DNA of 64,000 nucleotides from a virus (Duplodnaviria > Heunggongvirae > Uroviricota > Caudoviricetes): the IMG/VR virus record IMGVR_UViG_3300020578_005505, one strand, 5' to 3'. The first letter of the stretch is position 1, and every line of letters starts with the position of its first letter. Positions 1 to 62,101 of this stretch are shown piece by piece. Position numbers and translations under genes: made by a program. The notes under the pieces are model-generated. The model saw only the letters and a program-made list of their open reading frames with translations, did not search any database and was not told the origin of the DNA.

Positions 1-99
1 GAAGATCAACGATATCCTTTGAATGTAAGTGAGGAAAGTCTCCTCCGTCAATATGTATCCAATCGTTCCCGAAATCTCTTTTTCCGCAGCCTAAGTTTA
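1..99 (-). CDS. Partial CDS (N-terminus only; gene runs off the window start): class I SAM-dependent methyltransferase-like
   Basis: Minus-strand ATG at 99-97 then MLKINLGCGKRDFGNDWIHIDGGDF..., the Gly-rich LNLGCG motif I typical of SAM methyltransferases. Open to position 1. Confidence 0.4.
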
Positions 100-130
100 T
101 CTTTAACATTGAATATGAATATTATATTTC

Positions 131-754
131 TCACTTAAATTTAAATCCAGTTAATTTTTCTATTTTTTGAATATTAACTTTATTATTTTCTAATCCATCT
201 GCCTTAGTTGTATCATTATCAAATAAATAAGCTAACCATTCCTTTGTCTTTTTAACATAAATAACTTTCCAACATTGTTTAGGTACAGATACAGTTCCTA
301 TTTTTTTATCCTCACCTACTGAACCACACCATACTTTAGTTGAATCATTTTTTAAAGCTAGTTCACGAGTAAATGATTCTAATGTTTTCCAATCACCTCT
401 ATTTAAAGCTGGGTATTGAGCAGTCATATTACTAAAATAAAATGATTCATCATTAGCTACTTGATCACAAGCAGCATCAGCAGATGGAAAGTTATGTCCA
501 CGGTCAAATCCTTGTCCTGTATAACTTGATTGTAAATTAGTTTCATTAGCTAATTTAGGGTCAGAAATAAATTTATCACCACGTTTAGCTTTAGTATCAC
601 ATATTAACTTACTTTTAGTTAACCACCATTCTACTTTAACAGGATAGTGTTTTGATTTACTAAATGTAGTAGAATAAGCTTTATGATAAATTGTAATTGT
701 GTCTTGGGCAAAGACATTTGAAATAAGTAATAAAAATAATAATAATATTCTCAT
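131..754 (-). CDS. Secreted DNA/RNA non-specific endonuclease (Serratia nuclease/NUC1 family)
   Basis: N-terminal signal peptide MRILLLFLLLISNVFA and the DRGH active-site motif (FDRGHNFPSADAA). Confidence 0.7.
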   Translation of the reverse strand: MRILLLFLLLISNVFAQDTITIYHKAYSTTFSKSKHYPVKVEWWLTKSKLICDTKAKRGDKFISDPKLANETNLQSSYTGQGFDRGHNFPSADAACDQVANDESFYFSNMTAQYPALNRGDWKTLESFTRELALKNDSTKVWCGSVGEDKKIGTVSVPKQCWKVIYVKKTKEWLAYLFDNDTTKADGLENNKVNIQKIEKLTGFKFK

Positions 755-757
755 AGA

Positions 758-1171
758 TTAATCTATAAATGTTTTATCTAAAGCTTGTCCTTCATAAGGA
801 CCTGTTTTATACTCGTAAACCAAAGTATTGTCTTCTAGTATTAAATAATTATGTCCTCCTTGAAGAGTAAAGCTTGCATCTCCTGGTTCTAAAATACGCT
901 CAGCAATAATAGTATCATCTAAATCGTAGAAAATACATTTTACTTTGCCTTGAACTACAATCCAACTCTCTTGTGCAATTACATCTCTTGTTCTCTCTTT
1001 CCAAATATGTCTGTGAGGTCTAAAAGTTTTACCCTGTTCCATATTGAGGATAGAACATTGAATAAAATTCTCTTCAGAAACGATATCTTTTCTTCCAGGA
1101 GCCATATCTTCTTTTCGAACGATAATGTGAAGTAAAACTTCAGTCTCATGCTTACTGTAAATATTTTCCAT
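758..1171 (-). CDS. Cupin-fold sugar 3,4-ketoisomerase/epimerase-like protein (WxcM/FdtA-like)
   Basis: 137 aa, small beta-rich protein with His-containing cupin-like motifs, sitting in the glycosyltransferase cluster. Family assignment by resemblance only. Confidence 0.35.
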   Translation of the reverse strand: MENIYSKHETEVLLHIIVRKEDMAPGRKDIVSEENFIQCSILNMEQGKTFRPHRHIWKERTRDVIAQESWIVVQGKVKCIFYDLDDTIIAERILEPGDASFTLQGGHNYLILEDNTLVYEYKTGPYEGQALDKTFID

Positions 1172-1172
1172 G

Positions 1173-1976
1173 CTATAGTTTTATCCAAGTTTCAGGGATC
1201 AGATCTCGTGTATCTAGATCTATTCTTGCAGGACCGAACCACTCCTTAGGTGCTATGACTATTTTATTTTGATTTTGATTAAGCCATGCTCCCCACCAGC
1301 TGAAAGTACTATTGGCGATAATATTATGATTACAGTATGACATTAGGTATAGATCGATATAGTCTTCTTCTCTTTCAATATAAGTAATATCTTCTGATTC
1401 TCCAAATACTCCTTTACAGTAGTTTATATCATCACTAAAAATTACATAACTATCAATCTGAGTATTTGAAGTTAGATACTTGATTGCTCTTGTATAGTAC
1501 TCACTACTTGCAATCGGATGATGGTTAGGCAAGTTTACATAATCGCCTCTCCGTATATGAATTGATAAAGCATTACAGCTTAGAATTTTTCTGTATTTAT
1601 CTTCAATATACTTTTTTATCTGATCGGTAGGAGAAAATAGATCTAGGATTAATTGACGGTTATGAGCAAAATATCTTTCAGATTGCATATAACCTCTATA
1701 GATAATATCATCATGTGATTTGAGATCATGATATCCATAATTCAATTCTAGATAAAAAAACTTACTAGCATCAATATCTTCTCGAGGTACCTTAGAAAAA
1801 ATATTATGGTGATAGTTACCAAAAGAAGGATTCTTAATTTGAGGAAATGTAACTTTAAGGTTATTATCATAAGCATGACTATACAAAGCTGCTACCTGAA
1901 ACATTTGGTTACATAATCCGAAATTATACTTACCGTCTCCTGGACCTAAAATATCACAGGTTATGAATCCTGTCAT
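1173..1976 (-). CDS. Glycosyltransferase family 11 (alpha-1,2-fucosyltransferase-like)
   Basis: HIRRGDYV motif, matching the GT11 HxRRGDY signature. 267 aa. Confidence 0.6.
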   Translation of the reverse strand: MTGFITCDILGPGDGKYNFGLCNQMFQVAALYSHAYDNNLKVTFPQIKNPSFGNYHHNIFSKVPREDIDASKFFYLELNYGYHDLKSHDDIIYRGYMQSERYFAHNRQLILDLFSPTDQIKKYIEDKYRKILSCNALSIHIRRGDYVNLPNHHPIASSEYYTRAIKYLTSNTQIDSYVIFSDDINYCKGVFGESEDITYIEREEDYIDLYLMSYCNHNIIANSTFSWWGAWLNQNQNKIVIAPKEWFGPARIDLDTRDLIPETWIKL

Positions 1977-2712
1977 AGACTTTCTGCTTTGTTCTAATAA
2001 TCGCTTCTGTTTCTTTTTGTTTATTCAACCCTAATTTAGCTTCATTCATTTCATTCTCTCTATTCAAAATCAAGAGTATGTCATCTGTTTTAATAGCTCT
2101 TTTATTCCCAGCCATTTCAAGCATAGGAAACATAAGCGCTAGATCACTCGCTTCAGTATAAATCTTACCTGTTCTAGGATCTAACAGATCGTTCCTATCG
2201 ACTTTTTTAAAAAGGCCTGCTTTGTAAGTCCGTAAGTGACTGGATACAAAAGGATATTGCTTGTAAGCATTTGCATCACTTACTTCATTCGGAATAGAAA
2301 GAGATGCGTGTCCGCCTAATTGTCCGCTTGGGTACATTTGATAGTTACCATAAGTCAGCCAACATTGTGTGTTATTGTAGACGCTATTTAGATACTGTAA
2401 AACGAACACTGAAGCTAGCCAATCGTCCCCGTCTATATTAACAATGATATCTTCATCTGCAGGATTAGCATAATCGAAGGCTTTAACAATATTTTCTAAT
2501 GGGGATCCGGCATTAAATTCGTTTTTAAAAATATGAAACCTGGTATCTCCAGCTATCTCTTCTATCAACCTCCCTATAGTATTATCTGGAGATGCATCAT
2601 CAACAAAATACACCTCGAAGTTTTTATAGGATTGAAACTTAAGCATATTAACGTACATCTCAATCCATCTAGAAACCTTATATGCTGCTGTAAGAATAAT
2701 AAATTTATTCAT
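1954..2712 (-). CDS. Glycosyltransferase family 2
   Basis: FVDDASPDNT (DxD/DDxS-type GT-A motif) close to the N-terminus. Confidence 0.65.
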   Translation of the reverse strand: MNKFIILTAAYKVSRWIEMYVNMLKFQSYKNFEVYFVDDASPDNTIGRLIEEIAGDTRFHIFKNEFNAGSPLENIVKAFDYANPADEDIIVNIDGDDWLASVFVLQYLNSVYNNTQCWLTYGNYQMYPSGQLGGHASLSIPNEVSDANAYKQYPFVSSHLRTYKAGLFKKVDRNDLLDPRTGKIYTEASDLALMFPMLEMAGNKRAIKTDDILLILNRENEMNEAKLGLNKQKETEAIIRTKQKVYDRIHNL

Positions 2713-2714
2713 AG

Positions 2715-3293
2715 TTAATCAAAAAGAACTATACCTGTTCCGCTAAAATGTCCTAAATTAGTAATGTCTTTTTTTTCATAAGTTATTTCATTCCAATAAC
2801 TTACCATAGCATCATTTAAATAAATGTCATCGAGAAGTAAAATTCCTTTCCAGTTTATTTTTTTAAGATATTCATAAACGGCGTTTTCAAAAGGACCGTC
2901 ATGAGCTGTATCTAAAATTATTATACTACTTTTCTCAAACAGTTGAATCTTTTCAGTATCTAAAATATTCTCTACATAAAAATAGCAGTTATCAGTAGGC
3001 TGATTTACCATTCTTCTATCAACTAGGTCAAACGAATGAACAGTATTAGTTTTATTTGATGCTAGTGCTAAACATGAACATCCTATGTGAGTCCCTAGGT
3101 CTATAATAATTTCATTACTAACTAAACTGGCAATATTTACTAGCAGTCTATAATGCTCTCTTCCTGCTTTGTCAGTAAAAAAATTCCTATAATTATGATC
3201 TGTAATATTCAAGGATAGTTCCTCTACTTCAACATTATTAATTGTTTCAGGTGTAGTACTAATAATTGTTTCGTAAATTTTTTTTAGAATCAT
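2715..3293 (-). CDS. Putative SAM-dependent methyltransferase (FkbM-like)
   Basis: IIDLGTHIGCSCLALA resembles methyltransferase motif I. Confidence 0.35.
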   Translation of the reverse strand: MILKKIYETIISTTPETINNVEVEELSLNITDHNYRNFFTDKAGREHYRLLVNIASLVSNEIIIDLGTHIGCSCLALASNKTNTVHSFDLVDRRMVNQPTDNCYFYVENILDTEKIQLFEKSSIIILDTAHDGPFENAVYEYLKKINWKGILLLDDIYLNDAMVSYWNEITYEKKDITNLGHFSGTGIVLFD

Positions 3294-3304
3294 TTTGTAT
3301 AGTT

Positions 3305-3940
3305 TTATACAGTTCTATAATAACCTCCTATCTGGAATTTAGTTTTAGTATTTATAGAACCATACTCACTTGGCTTGTATCTAGAATAAGTCATAACCCT
3401 AAAGTCTACACTAACTCGGCACTTACCTGTTATATTAATTTTATTTCCATGTCTTAGATTGGCACCATCCCACTGTACCAATTCTCCATACTTACACTCT
3501 ATAGGTAGATAATCCCCTTTATCTTCTTCAGATTCTACCCAAATAGTATTAGTATCGAAGGCCTCAGTAAAAGGTAAGAAGAAATTATCTTCATCTACTT
3601 CTCCTGCCCATTTAACGTCTCTATAATTTTTATCCTTATGAAACTCTCCAACGGCAATATTATTAGGGTAAGCAACTCTGAAGGTAGGAATTGCTTGATA
3701 TACTATCTGTTCGCCATATAAAGGTTTAACTACTTTAAGAATGAAACTATTGTAGAGCTTTTCGAATGAATCTGTTCGCGCCCACTCGTAGAAAGCTTTA
3801 TGGTACTTTGTACTTTGATCATTCTCTCTCTTGAAAACATCTACTTCATCATTTAATAAAGCAAGATCATTAACCTCAAATAGTTTTTCAATAGCTTCTT
3901 TAAATGGAAAGGTAGTAGTATCGTAAGTTACTGTAGTCAT
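3305..3940 (-). CDS. Putative Fe(II)/2-oxoglutarate dioxygenase (PhyH-like)
   Basis: HKD (HxD) followed by a distal His/Arg (NLRHG...R), the arrangement of the 2OG oxygenase facial triad. Weak call. Confidence 0.3.
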   Translation of the reverse strand: MTTVTYDTTTFPFKEAIEKLFEVNDLALLNDEVDVFKRENDQSTKYHKAFYEWARTDSFEKLYNSFILKVVKPLYGEQIVYQAIPTFRVAYPNNIAVGEFHKDKNYRDVKWAGEVDEDNFFLPFTEAFDTNTIWVESEEDKGDYLPIECKYGELVQWDGANLRHGNKINITGKCRVSVDFRVMTYSRYKPSEYGSINTKTKFQIGGYYRTV

Positions 3941-3941
3941 A

Positions 3942-4874
3942 TCACTTGTTTGAAAGTATATTAAAAAATTCTATCATTCTTTGTTTCCATGTATGCTTTT
4001 CAAGACATATTTGATTTGCTCTTAATGCTAGCTCCGCTCTTAGATCAGGTTTATCTAAGTAAAAGTCAATAGCGTCTATCCAATCCTCTTTCGAAATATA
4101 AGGAATAGCCCCGTCAAAAACATTTAACACCTCGGGATGATCGCTTATTTGGAAATTATTACTTAATGCTATTTCATAAACCCTAGTATTAAAATCTAAC
4201 TTAAATCCTTCTTGGTCTAACTGCTCTCTTTTTTGTTGGTCGTAATGGAAGTTCAAATTTACTTTGGTAGCGTTATATACTTCATTTAAAAAAGAGTATT
4301 TAACGGTAGGATAGTTTATACCTTTATAATAGAAGCCTCCAAAGAAACCCTTATAACCTCTATCGATCACAGGAAATAAATAAACATCTTGATATCTATA
4401 TCCATGTCCTTGGCCTCCGAATCCTCCTACAAAGCTTACATCGTAGGTTTTACTAAATTCGTTTACAGTTTTATAGTAAATACTTTGAGTAGCTGCTAGA
4501 GGTAAGAATGCTACCGGCAGTCCATTTTCTTCAAACTTCTTTTTAACATATTCATGCTTCATAAATGGCTCTATCCAAAGATCTACTACCCCTTTTAATC
4601 TTAAAAAGTAATCTTTAAAGCCAGAAAAATTAACAATAATTTTAGTGCTTGGATGTTTGTCTTTAAACGTTAAAACAGGTATTAACATCTCAGGAGTTAT
4701 TCCCATAATAACTAAGAGATCTGGACTTTCTGGAAGCTCGTATGCGTTTAAGTCATATTTAAATTCAAGAATATAAGGTTCGTGACCTAGGTTTTCTAGT
4801 CCTTCATACCATCCAACTCCTCCAGGAACGAAATGATCTAATGATTCATATATTGCTACTTTTAAACTTTTCAT
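3942..4874 (-). CDS. CgeB-like/GT1-fold glycosyltransferase
   Basis: C-terminal NTRVYEIALSNNFQISD resembles the GT-B C-terminal domain of CgeB/DUF3880 proteins. Confidence 0.35.
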   Translation of the reverse strand: MKSLKVAIYESLDHFVPGGVGWYEGLENLGHEPYILEFKYDLNAYELPESPDLLVIMGITPEMLIPVLTFKDKHPSTKIIVNFSGFKDYFLRLKGVVDLWIEPFMKHEYVKKKFEENGLPVAFLPLAATQSIYYKTVNEFSKTYDVSFVGGFGGQGHGYRYQDVYLFPVIDRGYKGFFGGFYYKGINYPTVKYSFLNEVYNATKVNLNFHYDQQKREQLDQEGFKLDFNTRVYEIALSNNFQISDHPEVLNVFDGAIPYISKEDWIDAIDFYLDKPDLRAELALRANQICLEKHTWKQRMIEFFNILSNK

Positions 4875-5488
4875 TAAAATGTATTATAAAAAGCATTTTG
4901 ACTTTCTTGTCTCTCTATTCCTTTCTTATGTATTAAACAAAACTCTTCAGTTGCAGGAAGCATAACATAATTACTATGTCCGATAATTACTTCATGTACT
5001 TTACTTACCCAGCTAATCTTCGGGGAATTTTGGAGTATTCTTGTTTGGTAATCAGGGAAGTTAACATAGCCGGTATCGTTTACATGCCATCTCCATTTCT
5101 GAATATGCTCTTGAGTTAGACCTTCTACTAAATTTATTCTAGGTACCAAGAAAAGATCTACAGTAGGATTTGCAGCTAATATTTCAGGTAAATTCAATAA
5201 TAATTCAGGGTATAGATATTCATCTGCATCGATCTGGAATATCCATTCTCCAGTACATTTGCTCTTCAGATTATTCTTGAATGCAGCAAAGTTGCCCTTC
5301 AACGGAAACTGCCATAGTGAGAATGCCGGATACCTGCTTATAACTTCCAATACCTCTTTAGTTACAGAAGTATCAACTTGAATAACTACCTCGTCTACGT
5401 CTCTGATACCTCTATCTAGCTGATCAAGTAGACGAGCTAATTCCTCGTGCTCGTTATGAGCGGTAACAGCGTAACTTATTCTGAACAT
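4874..5488 (-). CDS. Glycosyltransferase family 2-like
   Basis: N-terminal ISYAVTAHNEHEELARLL and a DxD-like QIDADEY motif. Start overlaps the stop of the upstream ORF. Confidence 0.5.
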   Translation of the reverse strand: MFRISYAVTAHNEHEELARLLDQLDRGIRDVDEVVIQVDTSVTKEVLEVISRYPAFSLWQFPLKGNFAAFKNNLKSKCTGEWIFQIDADEYLYPELLLNLPEILAANPTVDLFLVPRINLVEGLTQEHIQKWRWHVNDTGYVNFPDYQTRILQNSPKISWVSKVHEVIIGHSNYVMLPATEEFCLIHKKGIERQESQNAFYNTF

Positions 5489-5931
5489 TATTCTTGATTA
5501 AATACTCCAATATAATCACACGCTTCTATAAAATCACTTCCAAAGTGCTTGATTGATTTAGCATCAGATTTATAGGATAAATTTTTATACTTCGGTTGCT
5601 TTTTTTCTTCCTCGGTTAAAGGAATTACTTTAATAGCCGACCATTGCGTTTCTTCTTTAGTCTTTCCATTCAGAAAAACAGTGCCTCTATCGGATATGTT
5701 GATACTAATTGGATACCATACTCTCTGTTGATTATCTACAAATTTAGTATCCTTATAAAGTTCAGGTAGAGTTTCTTCGTATTCTTCAAAATTAAACTCT
5801 CCTTGCTTCATTAAATCGTTAGTCTGAAAGCCACATCCCCAGCAGAAATAATTAAATTTAGTTTCGTTTATGGGTGTTACGTAGCAGCCGTCGCATCCAC
5901 ATTTAGGGCATATTATCATCTGATCAGTCAT
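5488..5931 (-). CDS. Hypothetical Zn-ribbon protein
   Basis: CPKCGCDGC...CWGCG cysteine pairs. Confidence 0.3.
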   Translation of the reverse strand: MTDQMIICPKCGCDGCYVTPINETKFNYFCWGCGFQTNDLMKQGEFNFEEYEETLPELYKDTKFVDNQQRVWYPISINISDRGTVFLNGKTKEETQWSAIKVIPLTEEEKKQPKYKNLSYKSDAKSIKHFGSDFIEACDYIGVFNQE

Positions 5932-6166
5932 TCAGTAGCGTTTTATCTTTTAGAAGTAGATTAGTGTTAGTAGAATGCCAAATCTTTATAGGTTCGGGCA
6001 TATCTGATGTTGCATTAGGCTTAGGACTATAATCAGGAAAAGACAACGTGTCTTGTACTTTATTAAGTTCTTCTAGAATAGTATCCCATTGCTCGGGAGT
6101 AATATTGTACGAATTAGCTGCTTTAGAAAATCCTTTTAACCAGGTAGTAAATTCTTTAGATGTCAT
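5924..6166 (-). CDS. Hypothetical protein
   Basis: ORF in an operon-like array, overlapping its neighbours by a few nucleotides. Confidence 0.3.
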   Translation of the reverse strand: MTSKEFTTWLKGFSKAANSYNITPEQWDTILEELNKVQDTLSFPDYSPKPNATSDMPEPIKIWHSTNTNLLLKDKTLLND

Positions 6167-7476
6167 AAAGTTAATTTTGTAAGTTTAGGAAGTTCAATTT
6201 TTTTTAGCTTAGGTAATACTATCTCTTTTTGTTCAGGTACGTAACGGTTTAAATATTCATTTAAAACTAAGACCATGTTGTCCCAGTTAAATTCATTTTT
6301 AATTTTATAAGCTTGCCTCTTAGCAGGTCCTTCAAATTTACTATAATTTTTATAAACGTCAACTAAAGCTTGGGCAGCTGCAGAATGATTGACTGAGAAC
6401 CAAGATGAGCCTTCTATAATTAGCCCTTTTGCAAATGCTGAAGGATGTACGGGAGTTATTTCTCCTGGGAGAAGGATGCTAAATTCAGGGTTCAAAAAAT
6501 CAGTATGACCGGACCATCCTGAAGCGATTAAAGGTTTTTTAGATAGACTGAATTCAGCTAATGGTCTACCGAAGCCTTCTCCTTTAGTTAGAGATACGAA
6601 AGCCTTCACTTTTGGATGATTATATAAATTGTTAATCTCCTTATCATCTAAATCACCGTGTACGAGATAAATATTTGGAAGTTTTTTTGCTTCTACGCTT
6701 TCTCTAATTATATCTATTTTTCTTAATACCTCATCTCTATCCATTATGCTAGCACCAGCTTGAGAAGTTTTTAAAATCAAGGCTGGTTGTTCTTTTTTAT
6801 CTTTAAACGATTCTAAAAATATCTTAATTAAAAGACTCGTATTCTTTCTATCTTCGCCGAAGTCTCCTGGGAGCCAATGCCCCACAAATAAGTAACTAAA
6901 TTGCTCTGAAATACTATTTAGATTATTGACAAGAGGAGTACACTCTAATTGTTCTTTAGGGATATAAAAATACTTATTTAAATCTACACCTTCAAATAAT
7001 ATCTCTACAGGGGCTTTTATTTTAATTATTTCAACTACAGCGTTACTATTTTTATCCCTCTGCTCATAAGTAGTACTTTCAAATACTTTTTTAGCATGAT
7101 TAGAAGATACTAAAACTAAATTCATTTTATTACATCCTATAATGAATTCGGGGTCGCATACAGTAGTCTCTATTCCGGCAGTTACTCCGATATTTACTTT
7201 ACCTACAGGCTGAAATTCATTTGGAACCGTAATCTGTATCCATACATCTGGTTGCTTAGGTAACTGATTGTTTATTAAAAGAGGTTTCATCCATCCCCAC
7301 TCCTCTAGATTATCATCTATAAAACCCCAAGGAGTACTACCCCATCTCTGAGACATAATTTTTATATCCCATTGATCTTTTTTTAGTTCGTAAACTGCTT
7401 TTATAAAATCCCTCGCTCTTGCTCCATAACCGCTATAAGTATCCGGCGGAGCTGAAATAACACAGAACTGCTTCAT
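6163..7476 (-). CDS. Glycosyltransferase family 4 (GT-B fold)
   Basis: TKGEGFGRPLAEF matches the EX7E-type GT4 motif. Confidence 0.6.
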   Translation of the reverse strand: MKQFCVISAPPDTYSGYGARARDFIKAVYELKKDQWDIKIMSQRWGSTPWGFIDDNLEEWGWMKPLLINNQLPKQPDVWIQITVPNEFQPVGKVNIGVTAGIETTVCDPEFIIGCNKMNLVLVSSNHAKKVFESTTYEQRDKNSNAVVEIIKIKAPVEILFEGVDLNKYFYIPKEQLECTPLVNNLNSISEQFSYLFVGHWLPGDFGEDRKNTSLLIKIFLESFKDKKEQPALILKTSQAGASIMDRDEVLRKIDIIRESVEAKKLPNIYLVHGDLDDKEINNLYNHPKVKAFVSLTKGEGFGRPLAEFSLSKKPLIASGWSGHTDFLNPEFSILLPGEITPVHPSAFAKGLIIEGSSWFSVNHSAAAQALVDVYKNYSKFEGPAKRQAYKIKNEFNWDNMVLVLNEYLNRYVPEQKEIVLPKLKKIELPKLTKLTL

Positions 7477-7477
7477 T

Positions 7478-8923
7478 TTAATAAGTTAGCTTATGTATAA
7501 TTTTTTTCTTAGGTAATTTTGATATCTTAATAAATTCGTGACTTGGTCTCGGCTTCCATTTAGCAAAAGTCTCTTCAAGTGTATCTATAACATTTTTACA
7601 CATAGCTCTAGCTGACATCATAGATTCGTCCGAAGTTACCCATTTTCGAGCTTCCGCTCCGATAAACTTACGGAAATTCTCGCCTGATTTATAACAAGCA
7701 GATATTTGAATAGCGATATCTCGGAAGTCGGCTTTGTCGTCAAAGATATACGGAGTAGGTACGGACCCTACAAGACTAATATTGCTAGGAAATATGGGGA
7801 ATGCCCAATTGCCGTGAGTCTTATAAGTTCCGAAATGATTGCTACAAAAGTTTTCGTTAAACTCTATCCAATTGCCTTGCTTATCTTCAAATCTAATTTG
7901 ATCTTGCATTCCTCCGGTAACTGTTGCAATTATAGGCCTACCACACATCATACCTTCAGTAAGCGACAGTCCCCATCCTTCATTAGAAGAGACGAGGGCT
8001 ACTACGTCACAGCAGTTATATAATATATTCATATCATAAGGAGAGTTTCTATCAGTAGAAAATACTACCCTATGTCTCTCAGGATCACATAACAGCTCGA
8101 TAACTGCCGGAAGATCGGTTCCGTTATCATCTACAGGCTGTGTGTGTAGGAGTAATGCACATTTTTTAGCTTCTTCTAGAGGCAACTGATTGCAAAATTC
8201 AACATAACCTACTATCAAATCAGGTACACACTTCCTTCTAATATTTCGCGCGTTATAAAGAATAACGAAATTAGGTTGATTTTCTCCAAAAAACTTCTTT
8301 TTCTTCTCTTTAACCTTACTATAGTCTTCTGTCATTTCAGGAGTAATGGGATAGAATACTTCCTCGTTGATACCGTGAGGAACATATTTTATTACTTTGT
8401 CCTTAGCTTTTTCTCCAAGTACTAGCTTATTAATATTAAAAGTTTGCTTTGAGATAGCCATCAATGCATCACAAGATTCATAATAAGCTTTATTATAGAG
8501 AGGTGCAGGTAAATCGTCCCATATATTAAGATATACCATTGGTATTTTCTTTCTTACTTCATTCTCTATCTGAAAAAGCCAGATCCAATATCTAGGATCA
8601 GTAAAGAAAACGATAGCATCAGGCTTTTCGATTTCAATTAATTGACGTAAGATCTCTTGAGATCCATAACCTGAGTGAGGATATATAAAAACCGAAGCAT
8701 CTTCGATCTTCGCTAAAGTGTTTGTATCTGCGCATAAATCAAGTTTTTTACCTGCTTCTGGGTGTGTAATAGCTGCGCCTAAGTTAACCCAGTTTAAGCG
8801 ATGAGAGGTTCCGATAACTATCTCTTTAGCCATTGTAGATATTCCAGAGGTAAATCGAATATCGTCTGCAAGCAAAAGTATTTTTTTTCTCTGCTCTTTT
8901 GGAATATAACCTTCTTTTGACAT
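7478..8923 (-). CDS. Glycosyltransferase family 4 (GT-B fold)
   Basis: NEGWGLSLTEGMMCGRPIIAT, the classic GT4 sugar-donor-binding motif. Confidence 0.65.
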   Translation of the reverse strand: MSKEGYIPKEQRKKILLLADDIRFTSGISTMAKEIVIGTSHRLNWVNLGAAITHPEAGKKLDLCADTNTLAKIEDASVFIYPHSGYGSQEILRQLIEIEKPDAIVFFTDPRYWIWLFQIENEVRKKIPMVYLNIWDDLPAPLYNKAYYESCDALMAISKQTFNINKLVLGEKAKDKVIKYVPHGINEEVFYPITPEMTEDYSKVKEKKKKFFGENQPNFVILYNARNIRRKCVPDLIVGYVEFCNQLPLEEAKKCALLLHTQPVDDNGTDLPAVIELLCDPERHRVVFSTDRNSPYDMNILYNCCDVVALVSSNEGWGLSLTEGMMCGRPIIATVTGGMQDQIRFEDKQGNWIEFNENFCSNHFGTYKTHGNWAFPIFPSNISLVGSVPTPYIFDDKADFRDIAIQISACYKSGENFRKFIGAEARKWVTSDESMMSARAMCKNVIDTLEETFAKWKPRPSHEFIKISKLPKKKIIHKLTY

Positions 8924-9089
8924 GTAATTTATAGATTTATATCTTTCACTTTTTTAATTGCTTGAGACAGTATATTATCATAGTATAATTCATAGAACTA
9001 TAATTAAAGTTTTCGTATAATTTTAAATAATTTTATAAGTTTCCAACAAAATATATAACAATCTCATGCCTATTTTTGAATACTTAAAC

Positions 9090-9296
9090 TTATTCTGTTG
9101 GTTTGATATAACGAGCACTTAATTGATTATTAATAGTTCTTTTGAAGTCTTCGTTTGTAAGGTAAAGGAACATAGCTCTTTCTAAAAGATTTCTCATTGT
9201 AATCCTATTCTTTAAGCCCTCTTGCTTAAAGGCTTCAAATAATTCATCTTGAAGCCTGACTGTTGTCAGGATATCTCCTTTTTTGCCGATATGCAT
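9090..9296 (-). CDS. Small hypothetical protein, possibly a ribbon-helix-helix DNA-binding protein
   Basis: 68 aa, basic/helical C-terminus. Speculative. Confidence 0.25.
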   Translation of the reverse strand: MHIGKKGDILTTVRLQDELFEAFKQEGLKNRITMRNLLERAMFLYLTNEDFKRTINNQLSARYIKPTE

Positions 9297-9347
9297 ATAC
9301 TTGGTTTATTAATAAATAGTACGATCTATATCTAAAACTATATATCA

Positions 9348-10217
9348 CTAGTTGTTTTTTCTGTCGCAAAGATCTGGTTTATCGAAATAGGGGCAAAATT
9401 TGCACTTAGCTATATTTTTAAAATAAATCTTTTCTTGATACCCTCCTTCTAAATTAAAGACATCATTTACGAAACTTTGAAAATCTTCAAAAGCATTCTT
9501 TACTTTCCTAATCCCGTGTGGGGGTATAAACTCCTGTACTCTCTTAGGGGCAAACTCAAGATTCTCATTGATTTTTCTACGTACTATAAAAAACTGTATG
9601 TCTATCTTATCTTCAGGAACATTGCGTAAAGCTGAGAAAAACCGTTTATACAAAAGAATTTGATTAATTTTAGTTTGATCTTTCTTCTCGTAGTCAGACC
9701 AGCCTCTTGTAGAAGTCTTAATATCGTAAATAGTATACTTATCGAGAATTTTATTATATATAACGAGATCAATGAAACCTTTCATCTTAACGAACTTCAA
9801 TTCTTCTACAATAGTCCCGTTAATAGGAATCTCTATACCAACGAGCTCGTGATTCTTTCTCTTAAAAAATAACCCTCGCTTTCTTTTAATAAAATTTAAT
9901 ATCGCTACTGCATCGTCATTGAACTCGCTTAGTTCTTCAGGATTTGAGAAATGGCTTACTACTGAGTTCTCCTTATATAATTCTATAAACCTAGTTTTAA
10001 AATAAGTAGGTAGATCGATCTTATCTGCTGCAGAGATCGATACCTCGAACATTACCTTTAAATAGTTTTGTAATGTTTCATGGAAGGCTGTACCGAAAAT
10101 TAAATGTACTGAAGGCTTAAAAGGTTGTAGCTTTTTAACATAAGATAGGTACCATTGGTGTGGACAAGTCTTATAGATTTGATATTGAGAAAATGATACA
10201 GTTTTATCTTTTGTCAT
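9348..10217 (-). CDS. Cas4-like PD-(D/E)XK exonuclease with Fe-S cysteine cluster
   Basis: N-terminal Cys (YKTCPHQWYLSY), D in GFIDLVIY, the DIK (E/DxK) motif, and a C-terminal CKFCPYFDKPDLC cluster. Confidence 0.6.
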   Translation of the reverse strand: MTKDKTVSFSQYQIYKTCPHQWYLSYVKKLQPFKPSVHLIFGTAFHETLQNYLKVMFEVSISAADKIDLPTYFKTRFIELYKENSVVSHFSNPEELSEFNDDAVAILNFIKRKRGLFFKRKNHELVGIEIPINGTIVEELKFVKMKGFIDLVIYNKILDKYTIYDIKTSTRGWSDYEKKDQTKINQILLYKRFFSALRNVPEDKIDIQFFIVRRKINENLEFAPKRVQEFIPPHGIRKVKNAFEDFQSFVNDVFNLEGGYQEKIYFKNIAKCKFCPYFDKPDLCDRKNN

Positions 10218-10515
10218 ATAACGCTCTTATTTTATTACCTAACTCTTGATCGTTAGGGTACTGTTTAACTAAATCCTGAACAGTATTAAGAGTCGTTATT
10301 TCTTTCTTTAAGTATTGAGCGAAATCTAAAGCTTCTTCATAAGCATGCTGAAGCATATTTTCGTGATTATTTTGACTAAGTGTTGAATTATACTTTTTCC
10401 AACCTCTATCAGCTCTACTGTTTAAATCGCTAATAACCGCTTTCGTAATACTATCCTCAGGTCTTCCAGGTCCGTTTGTAATTGTAATAGCCCCTAAATC
10501 TCTATTCCAAGTCAT
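10204..10515 (-). CDS. Hypothetical protein
   Basis: Shares the C-terminal motif PNDQELGxK(I/V)RxL with ORF 29421-29756. Confidence 0.3.
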   Translation of the reverse strand: MTWNRDLGAITITNGPGRPEDSITKAVISDLNSRADRGWKKYNSTLSQNNHENMLQHAYEEALDFAQYLKKEITTLNTVQDLVKQYPNDQELGNKIRALYDKR

Positions 10516-10735
10516 TAGCTAAATTTTTAGGTTGAAACTCTTTATTTACGTATCCGCATTTACTACAAGCAAAACTCGGAATAGGTATAAGAGCGTCGCT
10601 GTCAGTACCGGCAATGAATTTGCTTACTTTTCGTAAGAAGGTTACTTGCGTAAATTTATCATTTCCACACTCGTCGCATGTAATGGAAATAGTCTTATCA
10701 AGAGATATGTTAAGATTCACTTGCTTTTGCAGCAT
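10502..10735 (-). CDS. Hypothetical Zn-ribbon protein
   Basis: CDECGN...CSKCGY. Confidence 0.3.
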   Translation of the reverse strand: MLQKQVNLNISLDKTISITCDECGNDKFTQVTFLRKVSKFIAGTDSDALIPIPSFACSKCGYVNKEFQPKNLANDLE

Positions 10736-10792
10736 ATTATCTAGTTTATACTTTTATTATAAGAAAAAAGTTACTGCTCTTCAACTTGTTTT

Positions 10793-11092
10793 TTATTTTT
10801 TGTTAGTTAATTTATTTTCTAATCTATCAAAACGTGAATCCATTTGACTGTAAATATCTCTTTCAACATTATCAACATGTCTAGATACGTTTTGAATTTC
10901 AGTATTAATTATTCTGAGAATGTTTTCATTTTCACGAGATAATAACGTTTCTAGATCATTAACTCGTATTTGTACTTTATTTACCTTAACGAATGCGTAA
11001 ACAGCAACTATTGCCGTAGCAATAACCACCACAGACGCTATCCCTAAAATGAATGATAGTGTTTCCATAATTTGTCTCTCCTTATATGTCAA
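10793..11092 (-). CDS. Small membrane/coiled-coil protein
   Basis: N-terminal transmembrane helix followed by a coiled-coil-like segment. Confidence 0.3.
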   Translation of the reverse strand: MTYKERQIMETLSFILGIASVVVIATAIVAVYAFVKVNKVQIRVNDLETLLSRENENILRIINTEIQNVSRHVDNVERDIYSQMDSRFDRLENKLTNKK

Positions 11093-11106
11093 AGAGCAGT
11101 AACTTG

Positions 11107-11204
11107 GAACAGGGGAAGGAATCGAACCTTCACGCCTTGCGGCAGACTTTCGTCTACGTCTAACCTTCGGCGGTCATATGCCCGCTCTTTTTCGCCACCC
11201 TGTT
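11107..11204 (-). tRNA. tRNA-like gene of unusual length (about 98 nt), possibly with a long variable arm; anticodon unresolved
   Basis: Minus strand. 5' AACAGGG pairs with 3' CCCTGTT. Canonical T arm GAAGG-TTCGATT-CCTTC. The interior holds two GNRA-capped hairpins (AGAC-GAAA-GTCT and GCC-GCAA-GGC) and a GCGG/CCGC hairpin around a CATATG palindrome. No standard cloverleaf could be folded by eye. Confidence 0.35.
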
Positions 11205-11206
11205 CG

Positions 11207-11280
11207 TTGACTCTACTGGAATCGAACCAGTCACCTACTGATTATGAGTCAGCCGCTCTCACCAACTGAGCTAAGAGTCA
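11207..11280 (-). tRNA. tRNA-Met (anticodon CAT; could be initiator, elongator or a lysidine-modified Ile)
   Basis: Full cloverleaf on the minus strand: acceptor TGACTCT/AGAGTCA, D stem GCTC/GAGC with 9-nt loop, anticodon stem GCTGA/TCAGT, loop CTCATAA, T arm ACTGG-TTCGATT-CCAGT, discriminator A. CCA not encoded. Confidence 0.8.
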
Positions 11281-11287
11281 GTATAAG

Positions 11288-11360
11288 GTGACTATACTGG
11301 AATCGAACCAGTGGCACGGCCTGATTTAGGGCTTGCTCTAACCTTCTGAGCTAATAGTCA
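11288..11360 (-). tRNA. tRNA with atypical anticodon arm (anticodon ambiguous; possible 8-nt loop CTAAATCA)
   Basis: Acceptor TGACTAT/ATAGTCA, D stem GCTC/GAGC, T arm ACTGG-TTCGATT-CCAGT are all canonical. The anticodon stem AGCCC/GGCCG pairs only 3 of 5, leaving 3 bp with an 8-nt loop, or a mismatched stem around loop TAAATCA. Confidence 0.45.
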
Positions 11361-11580
11361 CTCCGTTTTGTAAACGCTTTCAAACCGTCTTCAGTATACT
11401 AATATAAGTATTTTATTTTAAATTACAAACATTTAAATAAAAAAAAAGAGTTTACAGCAAATCTCTTCTCTTAGATAGTGGCGTTTTCCTTTTTTGCCTC
11501 TTTGGTAGCATACTTTATACCCATAATTGTTCCGACTATTGCCTCTAACCTGCTTACCAACTCCTCTTTTGACAGATTTT

Positions 11581-11823
11581 TCATTTTTCGTCGCTTTTGT
11601 TCTTATTGATAAACTTGTCGACTGATGCAATACCAAAAGAGCCGAGAACTATTATCATAAAACCATCAAATACAAATTCATGTATAGGCATATCTTTTCC
11701 CATTACTCCTGTAATAATATCTATTACTAGAGTAATTACCATCATAATAAATGCACCAAATCCTACAACTGCTTTTTCATTAATTGTGTTGCTGTCATCA
11801 AACAGCGATTTAAACCATCTCAT
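11581..11823 (-). CDS. Small membrane protein
   Basis: 80 aa with two predicted transmembrane helices. Confidence 0.3.
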   Translation of the reverse strand: MRWFKSLFDDSNTINEKAVVGFGAFIMMVITLVIDIITGVMGKDMPIHEFVFDGFMIIVLGSFGIASVDKFINKNKSDEK

Positions 11824-11915
11824 ACTCTTGATTTTTGATTATTATTAATGACTATTTGTATGTAGTGTTATTTTTGATTATTATTTAGCTTGCTACATAA
11901 ACTTAATTCTTATTT

Positions 11916-12239
11916 TTATACTGCAAACGATTCTCCGCAACCGCAGGTTCTATTTGCATTTGGGTTTATAAATTGAAATCCTTTACCATTTAATCCATCA
12001 CTAAATTCTAATTCAGTGCCAAATAAATATAATAAAGATTTCATGTTAACTAAAATTTTTACGTTCTTATCTTCAAATAATTCATCACCTTGTTTTTTAT
12101 CCGTATCAAATTCTAATTCATAAGTTAAGCCTGAGCAGCCTCCACCTTTAACTCCAACACGAAGATATGGTTTATTGAATCCACTTTGATTTATTAATTC
12201 ATGGATTTTTTTACTTGCTGTTTCTGTTACTGTAATCAT
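11916..12239 (-). CDS. Iron-sulfur cluster insertion protein (IscA/HesB/ErpA family)
   Basis: GCSGLTYELEFD and a C-terminal CGCGESF motif, the hallmark of A-type Fe-S carriers. 107 aa. Confidence 0.75.
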   Translation of the reverse strand: MITVTETASKKIHELINQSGFNKPYLRVGVKGGGCSGLTYELEFDTDKKQGDELFEDKNVKILVNMKSLLYLFGTELEFSDGLNGKGFQFINPNANRTCGCGESFAV

Positions 12240-12240
12240 A

Positions 12241-13098
12241 TTAAAAATTAAACCCAGTTCCTAACCAAAACGTCTTTCTAAATGGGTCATAATCTGCAGA
12301 AATTGATACAAATTTATAATCATGAGTAATTCCAACACTTGTTGAAACGTAATTGTCTATAAAGTTTTTAAACGAGTATCTTCCATTATTAGAAAGTATT
12401 TTCAGCTCATCATAAAACTGAAAATTTTCCTGCTCGTTTCCTATACCAAATGATAAATTAACACCAAAATGTTTCATTTCCCTTCCTACTCCAAAATATA
12501 CTGACCATCCTTTAATTATATCTACTAATCTCTGGTCATTCCAAACTGTTGAAGCATTATAAAAATTCACATTTGAGTGATTATAAAATTCAGAGCGGTC
12601 ACCACTCATAATTTTGTTAAACTGCCCTTTTAAATAAACGCCTTTTCCAATTGTAAACCATGCTCCAAGTTCATTATTCGTTGATAAATTAATACCAACT
12701 CTAACTTTATTTTTTTTACTAATAATAGTATCTCTTTTACCATTTAAATGCTGAAATATTTTTGCAGGTTTTTTATATCCCCATCTGTCGTATACATTCC
12801 AATCATAAACATTATTGTAGAAATATGGAGCTCCCCATCTACGCCATTGATTCCATCCGCCAATTCCACCCCACATCGGTGGAGAAGGCGGTTTAAAAGT
12901 GTTTTGTTTAGACCTATATTGTTCTCTTTTTATTTCTTGTTTATCGAAACTTTCGGTGGTTGTGATTCGCGATGTAGCAGTAGTTGATTGTGAAGAAATA
13001 TTATTACGAATTGATAATTTCTGGTCTTTTTCAGTTTGAGAAAAAGTTGAAAATTGTAATAAGAATATTAAAAAAACAAATAAAATACATTTTTTCAT
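12241..13098 (-). CDS. Putative outer-membrane beta-barrel protein
   Basis: Signal peptide MKKCILFVFLIFLLQFSTFSQ, alternating aromatic/Gly-rich beta-strand pattern, and a C-terminal aromatic beta-signal (...WLGTGFNF). Confidence 0.45.
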   Translation of the reverse strand: MKKCILFVFLIFLLQFSTFSQTEKDQKLSIRNNISSQSTTATSRITTTESFDKQEIKREQYRSKQNTFKPPSPPMWGGIGGWNQWRRWGAPYFYNNVYDWNVYDRWGYKKPAKIFQHLNGKRDTIISKKNKVRVGINLSTNNELGAWFTIGKGVYLKGQFNKIMSGDRSEFYNHSNVNFYNASTVWNDQRLVDIIKGWSVYFGVGREMKHFGVNLSFGIGNEQENFQFYDELKILSNNGRYSFKNFIDNYVSTSVGITHDYKFVSISADYDPFRKTFWLGTGFNF

Positions 13099-13269
13099 AA
13101 TACTTTATTTAACTATGTATCATTTTTGTTACCTTTTATAGGCCCGGTCTTTAATTTATTTGAAAAATTTCCTGTATATACACCAGTAGGTTGTACTACT
13201 ATAAAGGTGCTTAATGAAAAAGATATAGATGTAAGTAACGTTTTCATACTCTTTTACATCTATAAATAG

Positions 13270-13677
13270 TGGAGGAGACGGGAATCGAACCCGTGTATCC
13301 ATAAGGAACAATAACACCAGCGTATCACATGCTTAGATCTGCAAGCTGATCAGTAGTTGGGGCCACTAGTTTTGGTTAGCGTGCCTTCCACCACCTAATT
13401 TTACTCTAAACTAGGAAACTCACGGCTCGCAATATGCGTCCGGATGCCGTCTCTATAGCGTACGACTCGCTGCTGTTCTGTTGCGAGGCTATCAGCTGCC
13501 CCAAGCTTACTAAGCCGCGTATGCGTACTCTTCAGCACCTACAAATGCCACTAGGTCATCATAGGTCATTGTTGACATTTCGTCATTTATTGTTTGAAAA
13601 TTTGTTTAAAGGCGACATATCCAAACGCCTGCATGTAGTATTACCTTCACATTACGGAGCAATACCTGGACTCCCCC
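13270..13677 (-). ncRNA. ssrA: tmRNA (SsrA); predicted tag GAEEYAYAA followed by two stop codons
   Basis: Minus strand. 5' GGGGGAG pairs with 3' CTCCTCC including a G3-U70 wobble, plus discriminator A73, which are the alanine identity elements. T arm ACGGG-TTCGATT-CCCGT. Internal reading frame GGT GCT GAA GAG TAC GCA TAC GCG GCT TAG TAA encodes GAEEYAYAA, the same pattern as Bacteroidetes tags such as GENNYALAA. Confidence 0.8.
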
Positions 13678-13756
13678 ATATTATAAAGAACTAACTATAA
13701 AGCAAAAGATATTGATCCTGCGTAGCCTTAGCGGCTGATTATTAGATGAAATCTTT

Positions 13757-14647
13757 TTACTTTACCTTTAAGGTTGAAGCACTATCACCTGAACCTGGTT
13801 GTAGGTCAGCTGTAAATCCTATAAATGTACAAATGACTTGACCACCTTGACCTTGTCTATTTGTTTGAGACGTATTTATTTGTCCCCATTTATCAGAACA
13901 TTTTACAGGATAGGAAGGATTACTACATGCTGGAGGTGGTGAATACTGTCTGTATCCCCAATCACATTGGTAAGGGAATACACCAGGAATATTTACACAT
14001 TCAGCAAAAGTAGCACCGTTTGTTGAACCAACGAATGGCTTAAGTTTTCCTGTGTTATCTTTATATCCGAAATCCCAAAATGCTCCGAAATTTGGAGAAA
14101 GGACGGAATCTACTCTCGGACCGAATGAAGTTACGTTTTGTTGTAGTATGGAATGTAGTCCATCAACACATGTGATATCAAATGATTCGCCCGCACCTGT
14201 TAGCTCACCGTTTTGCCACCATGTATTTACCGTAAATTCGAAATTATTAATACCGAATGGATAACCTGCAGCTTGTGCAGCTGTACACGCTTGGTTTTGA
14301 ACTCCCCATGTAACGATAACACCAGTTAAAGCGGTTGTATCGCCTAAGTGATATTCAATACCTTTTTTAGCCCAAAAGTTACCAACATCTGATTGACTGT
14401 TGAACATGTTCGAAGAGTCCATACCAAATAGACCAACAATTGATTCTCCTGCTTGGAGGGTAACCCACACTTGAACTGAATCAAGTTGTGATTTGTTTAC
14501 TAACACGACATCAGTGTATTGTGTTGTATCTACTGTTGGTAATGGTTGAGGTGGAGTTGGAGTTGGTTGATTCCAATTCCATAAAATTGCTCCTGCTATG
14601 AGAGAACCAATTCCGAGTGCAATTAAAATTTTTGCAATTTTTTTCAT
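13757..14647 (-). CDS. Secreted or membrane-anchored Cys-rich protein of unknown function
   Basis: N-terminal hydrophobic anchor/signal, Pro/Thr-rich linker (PTPTPPQPLPT), then a domain with about 10 Cys. Confidence 0.4.
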   Translation of the reverse strand: MKKIAKILIALGIGSLIAGAILWNWNQPTPTPPQPLPTVDTTQYTDVVLVNKSQLDSVQVWVTLQAGESIVGLFGMDSSNMFNSQSDVGNFWAKKGIEYHLGDTTALTGVIVTWGVQNQACTAAQAAGYPFGINNFEFTVNTWWQNGELTGAGESFDITCVDGLHSILQQNVTSFGPRVDSVLSPNFGAFWDFGYKDNTGKLKPFVGSTNGATFAECVNIPGVFPYQCDWGYRQYSPPPACSNPSYPVKCSDKWGQINTSQTNRQGQGGQVICTFIGFTADLQPGSGDSASTLKVK

Positions 14648-23569: not shown

Positions 23570-24280
23570 TTATTTCCTAGGGTAACCTTTAATAAACTCA
23601 TAAAATTCAGCTCGTGCAGCATCTTCTACTAAAAAGCATCCTGATAGCTTAGAGGTCTTCATATTAGCACCTTGATGCTTTACACCTCTACAGCTTACAC
23701 AGTTATGAGTTGCTTCAATCATTACTGCAACACCAATATTATCTTCGCAAATTTTATCTACAGCATTATGAATAGCTACAGTTAATTGTTCTTGAATTGA
23801 ACCTCTTCTACTAAAATGCTCTACAATTCGGTTAAGTTTACTTAGACCTACTACCCTACTTTTAAGGGTCGGCACGTAAGCGATATGACACAGGCCGTTA
23901 ATAGTCTGATGATGGTGACTACACATACTCGTAATAGGGATACCTCCTTCAAATACTACTCCGTCATAACCGTCAGCCGGAAAGCTAGTCACAGAATCTA
24001 GCTGCTCATATCTACCTTTCCATAAGTCGTTTACGTAGGCCTTAGCCACTCTCATAGGAGTATTCGAGCTATTAGGGTCGTTTTCCCAGTCAACTCCTAA
24101 AGCAGTTAGAAAATTGCCGTAATGTAAAGAAGCAGCTTCAATAATAAGCTTCTTTTCACCTTCAGTTAAACAATTTCTTCCTTCTTTAATTGCGTCTCGC
24201 AAAAAAGTACTAATACCGTTAGCATGGCCAGCTTGTGCAAGCTCTAGTTTTTCAATTTTAATATGTTTATCTCTACTCAT
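23570..24280 (-). CDS. folE: GTP cyclohydrolase I (FolE)
   Basis: CSHHHQTINGLCHIAYVP...VGLSKLNRIVEHFSRRGSIQEQLT, the conserved FolE core with the Cys/His zinc ligands. Confidence 0.8.
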   Translation of the reverse strand: MSRDKHIKIEKLELAQAGHANGISTFLRDAIKEGRNCLTEGEKKLIIEAASLHYGNFLTALGVDWENDPNSSNTPMRVAKAYVNDLWKGRYEQLDSVTSFPADGYDGVVFEGGIPITSMCSHHHQTINGLCHIAYVPTLKSRVVGLSKLNRIVEHFSRRGSIQEQLTVAIHNAVDKICEDNIGVAVMIEATHNCVSCRGVKHQGANMKTSKLSGCFLVEDAARAEFYEFIKGYPRK

Positions 24281-24283
24281 AAT

Positions 24284-24793: not shown

Positions 24794-24821
24794 TTAAATA
24801 TTTTATATAATATATGAATAT

Positions 24822-61307: not shown

Positions 61308-61317
61308 TGCTTTTATT

Positions 61318-62097: not shown

Positions 62098-62101
62098 ATC
62101 A

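Follow-up and report, generated by a model that had tools for sequence, protein, structure and literature searches.

To our knowledge, virion glycosylation by phage-encoded enzymes has so far been documented only in mycobacteriophages, and autonomous glycosylation with complex methylated glycans only in giant viruses. Mycobacteriophage glycosyltransferases (GTs) glycosylate capsid and tail-tube subunits, according to the account of Freeman et al. 2023 given in two papers that cite it (PMC12619734, PMC10877033), and chloroviruses use their own GDP-mannose 4,6-dehydratase (GMD), GTs and methyltransferases to make methylated, fucose-/rhamnose-rich capsid glycans (PMC9614988). Here we describe a glycan-synthesis locus in a tailed phage, at the left end of a 64,000-nucleotide stretch of DNA (the window) that is IMG/VR virus record IMGVR_UViG_3300020578_005505 (Caudoviricetes). 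The locus consists of a fixed core of genes followed by an exchangeable cassette. Our favoured reading, to which we give a probability of roughly 0.5, is that it is this phage's copy of a lineage-wide system for cytoplasmic glycosylation of its own virion protein(s) with a strain-specific oligosaccharide.

A sequence-only reading of the window had pointed to positions 758-8923 as a co-directional block with at least six GTs and several sugar-tailoring enzymes. Our analysis bears out the six GTs, which lie head-to-tail on the minus strand, have profile matches, and retain the GT11 HxRRGD, small GT2 DxD and GT-B EX7E motifs intact. A co-directional glycan-building block is thus present in a phage and, judging from its enzyme families, would have to assemble an oligosaccharide with tailored sugars. 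The block lies where it was placed, but its limits had been drawn too narrowly: the locus starts one gene earlier, with a small gene at 9090-9296, and its left end runs beyond position 1 of the window. L088, a metagenome contig from the Joint Genome Institute (JGI), is 99.986% identical to window positions 1-14000, so we regard the two as one phage population; this contig extends the locus past the window edge and brings its length to 13.4 kb or more. The loci of relatives span about 14-15 kb; their last gene codes for a GT2 of about 400 amino acids, and beyond it lie homologs of genes gp168-gp164 of phage immuto, a cultured relative.

By scanning IMG/VR with the 481-residue GT of the core we found 122 relatives, and we clustered the open reading frames (ORFs) of 81 loci. 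The order of genes in these 81 loci is invariant: a PD-(D/E)XK nuclease, a small protein of about 64 residues, GTs of about 480 and 435 residues, sometimes a small ORF, a Zn-ribbon protein of about 145 residues, and a GT2 of about 205 residues. A second, independent search seeded on the neighbouring nuclease gave 69 loci with enough sequence, with nuclease identity down to 41%, and the core GT is directly downstream of the nuclease in all 69. The small gene at the start of the locus (cluster 1) is present in 82 of 82 loci and abuts the first GT in 78 of 80. Among 185,579 species genomes we found the core GT on only 5 contigs of metagenome-assembled genomes (MAGs), mostly binned with Bacteroidota, which argues that it is a phage gene and not a recent import from a host. 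The nuclease–GT module recurs in a phage with PolB and a clamp loader, Microcystis phage Mel-JY01 (L085; PP395634 81375-89690), which keeps the nuclease, two GTs and a GT-A enzyme without the first small gene or the Zn-ribbon gene, so the module must be older or more mobile than the Immutovirus-like lineage. The first GT of Mel-JY01 is annotated as two ORFs, possibly through a frameshift or a split.

After this core comes a cassette of about 8-10 kb that differs from phage to phage. We compared 37 ordered cassettes, of which 34 are distinct, and counted 130 distinct families of cassette proteins (at least 100 amino acids) in 52 loci. The families include many methyltransferases, GT2 and GT10-like enzymes, DegT aminotransferases, dehydratases, epimerases, reductases and UDP-glucose dehydrogenase, and also thiamine pyrophosphate enzymes, acetyltransferases, nucleotidyl- and cytidylyltransferases, HAD phosphatases, 2-oxoglutarate (2OG) oxygenases and cupins. 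Even between pairs of phages whose core GTs are 85-95% identical, the median Jaccard index of the cassette families is 0.17, and some pairs have zero overlap. Compared with its relative L002 (about 91-92% identical), the window phage has gained an O-methyltransferase, lost another gene, carries a divergent GT2 allele, and has a nuclease inserted. Conserved flanks around an exchangeable middle are the architecture of a serotype locus.

The cultured relative immuto has the locus at the same position and in the same order: a PD-(D/E)XK nuclease, a small protein, GTs of 480 and 436 amino acids (59% and 53% identical to those of the window), the Zn-ribbon protein (43%) and the GT2 (47%). Megablast showed no match between the two phages at the DNA level. 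Its cassette is wholly different, with aminotransferases, an acetyltransferase-like 'pilin glycosylation protein' and an epimerase, and without GT11, cupin or CgeB-like GT genes. The glycan genes of immuto are annotated in GenBank, and we found no paper in the searched literature describing its glycan locus. The sequence-only reading had called the density of glycan genes far beyond what is usual in phages, which is overstated: the locus is universal in an abundant lineage, the annotated locus of immuto is longer, and sugar clusters with GT11 genes are common in cyanomyophages.

The small first gene (9090-9296, 68 amino acids) looks like a ribbon-helix-helix (RHH) protein, its alignment showing an N-terminal strand 'TSVKV' followed by two helices; by this sequence pattern it is a putative regulator. 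Next to it, the 481-residue core GT (7478-8923) is a GT4-like enzyme of the GT-B fold that matches Pfam Glycos_transf_1 above the cut-off (3.7e-11; 43.3 bits against 26.4), with the two glutamates of its EX7E motif (E315...E323) invariant. It has at least 8000 homologs in a database of 5.8 billion proteins, the best 120 of which are all at least 69% identical to it, and the median identity among its relatives is 62%. When its family profile was searched against the PDB, the best match was B736L of chlorovirus NY-2A (3oy2; 5.6e-12), five orders of magnitude ahead of the next, with the resemblance confined to about 140 residues of the C-terminal Rossmann domain. B736L is a virus-encoded GT that binds GDP-mannose (PMC9614988). 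The 437-residue paralog (6163-7476) clusters with the 481-residue GT and matches PHROG 2170 (4.6e-21). Its match to Pfam Glycos_transf_1 is below the cut-off (19.9 bits, 5.5e-4), its EX7E-type residues E300 and E308 are invariant, and its family profile had no match in the PDB. A small variable ORF (5924-6166, 80 amino acids), without a family match and found only in some loci (clusters 15 and 39), separates these genes from the Zn-ribbon protein (5488-5931, 147 amino acids). The latter is invariant in the lineage and has a confident predicted model (predicted local distance difference test score, pLDDT, 91), for which a structure search found no relative.

The last core gene (4874-5488) codes for a small GT-A enzyme of 204 amino acids that matches Pfam GT2 (1e-9) and has a DxD motif, 'DADE', invariant across 36 homologs. 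Its family profile matches the GT domain of Listeria GmaR in the PDB over its full length (2e-13), followed by the peptide S-glycosyltransferases SunS and ThuS (about 3e-8), all ahead of polysaccharide synthases. GmaR O-GlcNAcylates flagellin. It is a bifunctional flagellar anti-repressor and glycosyltransferase (PMC3150276). The family of the small GT2 has 323 representatives (50% identity, E <= 1e-30), some of them fused to FkbM methyltransferase, GT2 or GT32-like domains. The resemblance to GmaR and SunS links the locus to protein glycosylation, a link that is only suggestive because the phage protein is the catalytic domain alone, without the TPR region of GmaR and SunS, and because the fusions carry methyltransferase and GT domains.

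The cassette of the window phage begins with a CgeB-like GT of the Glyco_trans_1_2 family (3942-4874, 310 amino acids; Pfam PF13524, 2.3e-14) which, in the first 81 loci, recurs in the closest relative alone. It is followed by a probable 2OG-Fe(II) oxygenase (3305-3940, 211 amino acids), an assignment of the sequence-only reading that we keep as probable on the basis of a partial match to NCBIfam TIGR04324 (1.2e-7) and visible HxD...H...RxS residues; a PDB sequence search with it found no match. The methyltransferase that had been proposed for the block is the next gene (2715-3293, 192 amino acids). At first it had no family match, but its family profile finds the TrmR/YrrM/COMT O-methyltransferases in the PDB (1.6e-6), and its AlphaFold model (pLDDT 96.5) matches TrmR and COMT with a Foldseek probability of 1.0, which places it among the class I S-adenosylmethionine-dependent O-methyltransferases of COMT/TrmR type. 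It is the gene missing from the L002 locus. Further along are a GT2 (1954-2712, 252 amino acids; Pfam GT2, 1.1e-10) and a GT11 enzyme of the alpha-1,2-fucosyltransferase family (1173-1976, 267 amino acids; PF01531, 1.2e-27, 97.3 bits against a cut-off of 23.9; PHROG 2644, 2.9e-51), in which the HxRRGD motif reads 'IHIRRGDY'. Homologs of the GT11 protein are present in 103 phage records, mostly from cyanomyophages. The cupin that follows (758-1171, 137 amino acids) scores 44.4 bits with the WbuC-family model NCBIfam TIGR04366, above its cut-off of 42, and is assigned to that family; it had been called a sugar isomerase, and we found support for the cupin but not for the isomerase.

At 131-754 the locus is interrupted by a non-glycan gene for a secreted non-specific endonuclease (Pfam Endonuclease_NS, 2.1e-41; signal-like N-terminus). 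Two close relatives, L002 and L086, carry this gene upstream of the PD-(D/E)XK nuclease, so we consider it a recently relocated, moron-like gene. The next cassette gene (Methyltransf_11, 179 amino acids) starts at 1-109 and leaves the window. On L088 it is followed by a seventh GT (a PglI-like GT2 of 265 amino acids), a DegT-like protein (198 amino acids), an FkbM methyltransferase, a GMD (TIGR01472, 2.4e-114) and at least two further ORFs. The DegT-like protein (L088 17156-17752; cluster 37; gp172 in immuto) has about 200 amino acids and matches only the N-terminal part of DegT-type aminotransferases. It is always just upstream of the GMD gene, is 75-82% identical between otherwise unlike cassettes, and is too conserved to be a pseudogene. 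Outside the locus, at 28472-29419, we confirmed a previously noted epimerase (315 amino acids; Pfam Epimerase, 5.5e-41). This nucleoside diphosphate (NDP)-sugar epimerase/reductase is 38% identical to the epimerase within the immuto glycan locus and has a partial match to GDP-L-fucose synthase; it is a possible supplier of donor sugar and a candidate for the last 6-deoxyhexose step.

About 20 nt ahead of the small first gene, at 9312-9318 (minus strand), is a promoter-like motif, TATTTAT. All of 80 related loci have the motif ahead of the RHH gene, at a distance of mostly 22-30 nt from its start codon, in a spacer whose surrounding sequence is not conserved. In immuto it precedes 18 of the 27 structural-module genes that have an upstream gap but only 10 of 66 others (Fisher's exact test, P = 2e-6; odds ratio 11); among these 10 are GroES, a gene immediately ahead of the lysis genes, the glycan locus, and the gene that follows that locus. 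In the window it precedes the tail sheath, tail tube and baseplate hub genes as well as the glycan locus. From this association we infer that TATTTAT is a late-class promoter, and in the form TATTTAT(A/T), which in the window and in immuto lies about 20-30 nt from start codons and is strongly enriched before structural (tail and head), chaperonin and lysis-adjacent genes, it may define the late regulon of the lineage.

Of the three targets that had been proposed for the glycan (virion proteins, the host surface and DNA bases), virion proteins are the best supported, by the solubility of the enzymes, the motif shared with structural genes, and the resemblance of the core GTs to GmaR, SunS and B736L. 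In a hydropathy scan of 815 ORFs from the nuclease onward in about 80 phages, none had three or more hydrophobic segments. The loci therefore encode no flippase, polymerase, priming transferase, ligase or Gtr-type protein, and an autonomous surface-polysaccharide pathway is excluded because the locus has no membrane proteins. In a Pfam census, likewise, none of these export-type families (flippase, polymerase, priming transferase, ligase, GtrA/B/C) was among the top 25 families. The gene content, the conserved core, the hypervariable cassette, the lack of membrane components and the distribution of the motif are observed directly, whereas we infer that expression is late, that the acceptor is a protein, how core and cassette share the work, and which donor sugars are used. 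Under our favoured reading, the TATTTAT element would drive a late operon headed by the small RHH-like protein. The three invariant GTs (the GmaR/SunS-like GT-A and the two B736L-like GT-B paralogs) would lay down a conserved inner glycan on the acceptor, perhaps helped by the Zn-ribbon protein, and the cassette would make unusual donor sugars and then add and tailor the outer sugars. In this phage the cassette would contribute four more GTs, including the GT11 fucosyltransferase-type enzyme, up to four methyltransferases, the cupin and the oxygenase. Donor sugars could be supplied by a route in which GMD converts GDP-mannose to GDP-4-keto-6-deoxymannose, which is then converted to a 6-deoxyhexose, and the outer residues would include a 6-deoxyhexose added by GT11 and carrying O-methylations. 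Swapping of cassettes between close relatives would then give rise to glycan 'types'.

Several observations weigh against this reading. The acceptor protein is itself postulated for every lineage member. A protein with 34% Ser/Thr, gp064, is encoded beside the immuto capsid gene, and to name it as a candidate acceptor is speculation; the Ser/Thr-rich C-terminal tails of mycobacteriophage capsid proteins have no counterpart in the capsid or tube protein of immuto, nor in the tube or sheath protein of the window. The acceptor of B736L has not been established either (PMC9614988), and among relatives of the small GT2, where we sought fusions to TPR or acceptor-binding domains, the only fusions were to methyltransferases and GTs. 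The locus is beside replication and recombination genes, and it adjoins a Cas4-like PD-(D/E)XK nuclease in a linkage that is kept even in the distant Mel-JY01. As for late timing, 10 non-structural genes of immuto carry the motif, and TATTTAT(A/T) resembles the Bacteroidota -7 box, TAnnTTTG, with a final A. Soluble GTs can also work on lipid-linked intermediates at the inner face of the membrane, where host export would still be usable, and the nucleoside data from immuto (below) come from a relative with a different cassette, in which rare or undigestable adducts could have escaped detection.

Export by the host is the basis of another explanation that we consider unlikely, in which the phage enzymes build or modify a lipid-linked oligosaccharide (O-antigen, capsule unit or Bacteroidota protein O-glycan) and the host's flippase and ligase carry it to the surface, the phage gaining by excluding other phages or by stopping its progeny from binding to debris. 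The gene content is like that of bacterial surface-polysaccharide loci (DegT, Gmd, GT2, GT4, GT11, WbuC and PglI-like genes), cyanophage clusters of such genes are conventionally read as 'LPS (lipopolysaccharide) genes' in the P-SSM2 literature, and an arms race at the cell surface could likewise account for the hypervariability. However, the proposed remodelling of the host surface is disfavoured by the 815 ORFs, which include no multi-pass protein and no Wzx, Wzy, priming phosphoglycosyltransferase, ligase or GtrABC, and the machinery of the host would need to handle over 30 different glycans. The core GTs, being phage-restricted, are not host-derived, the lineage appears to be lytic and of myovirus type, and structural genes have the same motif as the locus. 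This last point also counts against a distinctly unlikely proposal, that the enzymes act in the cytoplasm on a host protein or a small molecule or make a soluble glycoconjugate, for example disabling a defence or reprogramming metabolism, with the Zn-ribbon and RHH proteins as DNA-binding regulators. PADLOC models gave no match to either GT-B, the GT2, the Zn-ribbon or the RHH protein, the neighbouring nuclease being only weakly Cas4-like, and one conserved target would hardly call for about 14 kb of sugar-nucleotide and tailoring genes that are exchanged as a whole from strain to strain.

Attachment of the sugars to modified DNA bases for evasion of restriction, which had also been proposed, seems to us highly improbable. 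Such modifications are known, for example the glucosylated hydroxymethylcytosine (hmC) of T4 and the arabinosyl-hmC of other phages. YerA41 has a thymidine adduct of about 1 kDa, and glycosylation of DNA is a frequent activity of phage GT-B enzymes (Pyle et al. 2024, as described in a paper citing it). The locus also keeps its linkage with a nuclease and belongs to the half of the genome that holds nucleotide and replication genes, and diversifying selection would suit an anti-restriction role. In the virion DNA of immuto, on the other hand, liquid chromatography with UV detection and tandem mass spectrometry (LC-UV-MS/MS) found no sugar adduct: dA, dC and dT were canonical, and 7-(formylamino)methyl-7-deazaguanine (fdPreQ1) had taken the place of all dG (PMC10516641), a result that applies to a relative and not to the window phage itself. 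The window has the same set of 7-deazaguanine DNA-modification genes, separate from the glycan locus and homologous to those of immuto (FolE, QueC, QueD, QueF-like, DpdA and a DpdN-like formyltransferase, at 23570-27958 and 32894-33358, minus strand), and fdPreQ1 offers no hydroxyl group. DpdA and the QueF-like and DpdN-like proteins are only 34-36% identical to those of immuto, so the end product in the window phage may differ from fdPreQ1. We saw no hydroxymethylase homolog in the 64-kb window and no Pfam match to DNA glucosyltransferase families of T4 type. The immuto nucleosides without sugar, the shared modification genes and the lack of a hydroxymethylase together make DNA glycosylation unlikely. 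A TET/JBP-like role on nucleobases, suggested for the 2OG oxygenases, is unsupported, their best matches being a carbohydrate-cluster oxygenase and a PKHD/YbiX-type hydroxylase.

All genes of the window are on the minus strand, its GC content is about 34%, and it encodes a family A DNA polymerase, GroEL, class II ribonucleotide reductase, DnaB, a RecA-like protein, tail sheath, tail tube and tape-measure proteins. It comes from an uncultured freshwater phage, whose lineage appears to be lytic and myovirus-like. When stretches of 9.5 kb and 20 kb from the window were compared by megablast with 50,697 phage records, there were zero matches at the DNA level, and relatives could be reached solely through protein-level searches. 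The backbone is shared with immuto, whose PolA is 55% identical and which has GroEL, the 7-deazaguanine genes and tail genes in common with the window. Another contig, L175 (CAYVDC010000001.1, 184.7 kb), is binned as a 'Candidatus Saccharibacteria' MAG and encodes the core GT at 49% identity; it is probably a mis-binned phage, its length fitting a complete phage genome of this lineage.

Two further sites had been noted as carrying glycan genes. The GT32-like protein at 36270-36869 is a borderline case that, at 22.6 bits, falls just short of the cut-off of 23. At 60714-63837 (minus strand), beside the tail sheath gene, there is a second small block of sugar-tailoring appearance that is absent from immuto and is cut by the right edge of the window. 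It encodes a DUF6445 protein, an NDP-hexose-type C-methyltransferase (Methyltransf_14 and Methyltransf_13), a 259-residue ORF and a 2OG-Fe(II) oxygenase (PKHD/YbiX-like). The cluster described earlier at 60714-64000 thus holds for its oxygenase and its sugar C-methyltransferase but not for its GT, the ORF at 61318-62097, which has no Pfam or NCBIfam support.

Elsewhere in the window, a transfer-messenger RNA (tmRNA) gene is located at 13267-13677 (minus strand; Rfam RF00023, 56.2 bits against a gathering score of 47), with the tag peptide AEEYAYAA predicted by ARAGORN. At 11206-11280 and 11287-11360 (minus strand) an Rfam-confirmed tRNA-Met gene stands beside a tRNA-like gene that ARAGORN predicts to have a four-base anticodon, aaat, the latter being below the Rfam gathering threshold. 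An ORF of 779 amino acids at 33586-35925 (minus strand) has no family match and a Ser/Thr-rich N-terminus, and lies in the window's single GC-rich patch (41.6%, compared with about 34%). TATTTAT also precedes its upstream neighbour, 35950-36237.

If the favoured reading is correct, a very common aquatic phage lineage spends about 9% of its genome on a variable sugar coat, and phage 'glycotypes' evolve through cassette swapping. The locus would also be a large untapped source of soluble GTs and sugar-tailoring enzymes, and it would raise the question of what selects for glycan diversity in phages, be it adsorption, the stability of the particle, or protection against grazers or defences. With immuto in culture on Flavobacterium sp. 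LMO8, this can be tested directly. Putting all parts together, we offer more tentatively a joint reading in which a globally abundant lineage of large phages of Bacteroidota, from fresh and brackish water, would wear a glycan coat with a fixed inner part and an outer part that comes in dozens of 'serotypes', through cassette exchange at one locus that would be the phage counterpart of O-antigen loci. In it, the chain would begin on a virion protein through the action of the GmaR-like GT, and the so far unrecognised Zn-ribbon protein, of a novel fold, would be an essential accessory.

The mechanism that we propose for the locus is the one described for mycobacteriophages of the Che8/Corndog/Myrna type, in which, as reported in the citing papers, soluble phage GTs and methyltransferases act in the cytoplasm on the phage's own capsid and tail-tube proteins. 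By those accounts the mycobacteriophage clusters have 2-4 genes, compared with at least 20 here, and their glycans are demonstrated, whereas ours are deduced from genes; no mycobacteriophage protein matched the core GT at E <= 1e-3. The chloroviruses PBCV-1 and NY-2A (A064R, A546L/B736L, GMD and sugar methyltransferases) resemble the locus in combining soluble GTs with GMD and methyltransferases, and GT–methyltransferase fusions occur in the small-GT2 family as they do in chlorovirus A064R. They differ in being giant viruses of eukaryotes whose glycan genes are scattered over the genome, with no single cassette locus. Bacterial O-antigen and capsule loci and the cyanophage 'LPS' clusters share with the locus its conserved flanks and hypervariable middle and its Gmd, DegT, GT2, GT4, GT11, WbuC, methyl- and acetyltransferase genes. 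Compared with O-antigen and capsule loci, however, the approximately 80 phage loci are without Wzx, Wzy, ABC transporter, priming transferase and ligase genes, and their core GTs are phage-restricted. Glycan clusters in large aquatic phages are already known, as is virion glycosylation in mycobacteriophages and giant viruses. What we did not find in the searched literature is the combination of a universal phage-restricted core, a serotype-like cassette, a motif in common with structural genes, no export genes, and a very abundant lineage. Set beside these systems, the locus is less exceptional as a single locus than was first thought, and more interesting as a lineage-wide system.

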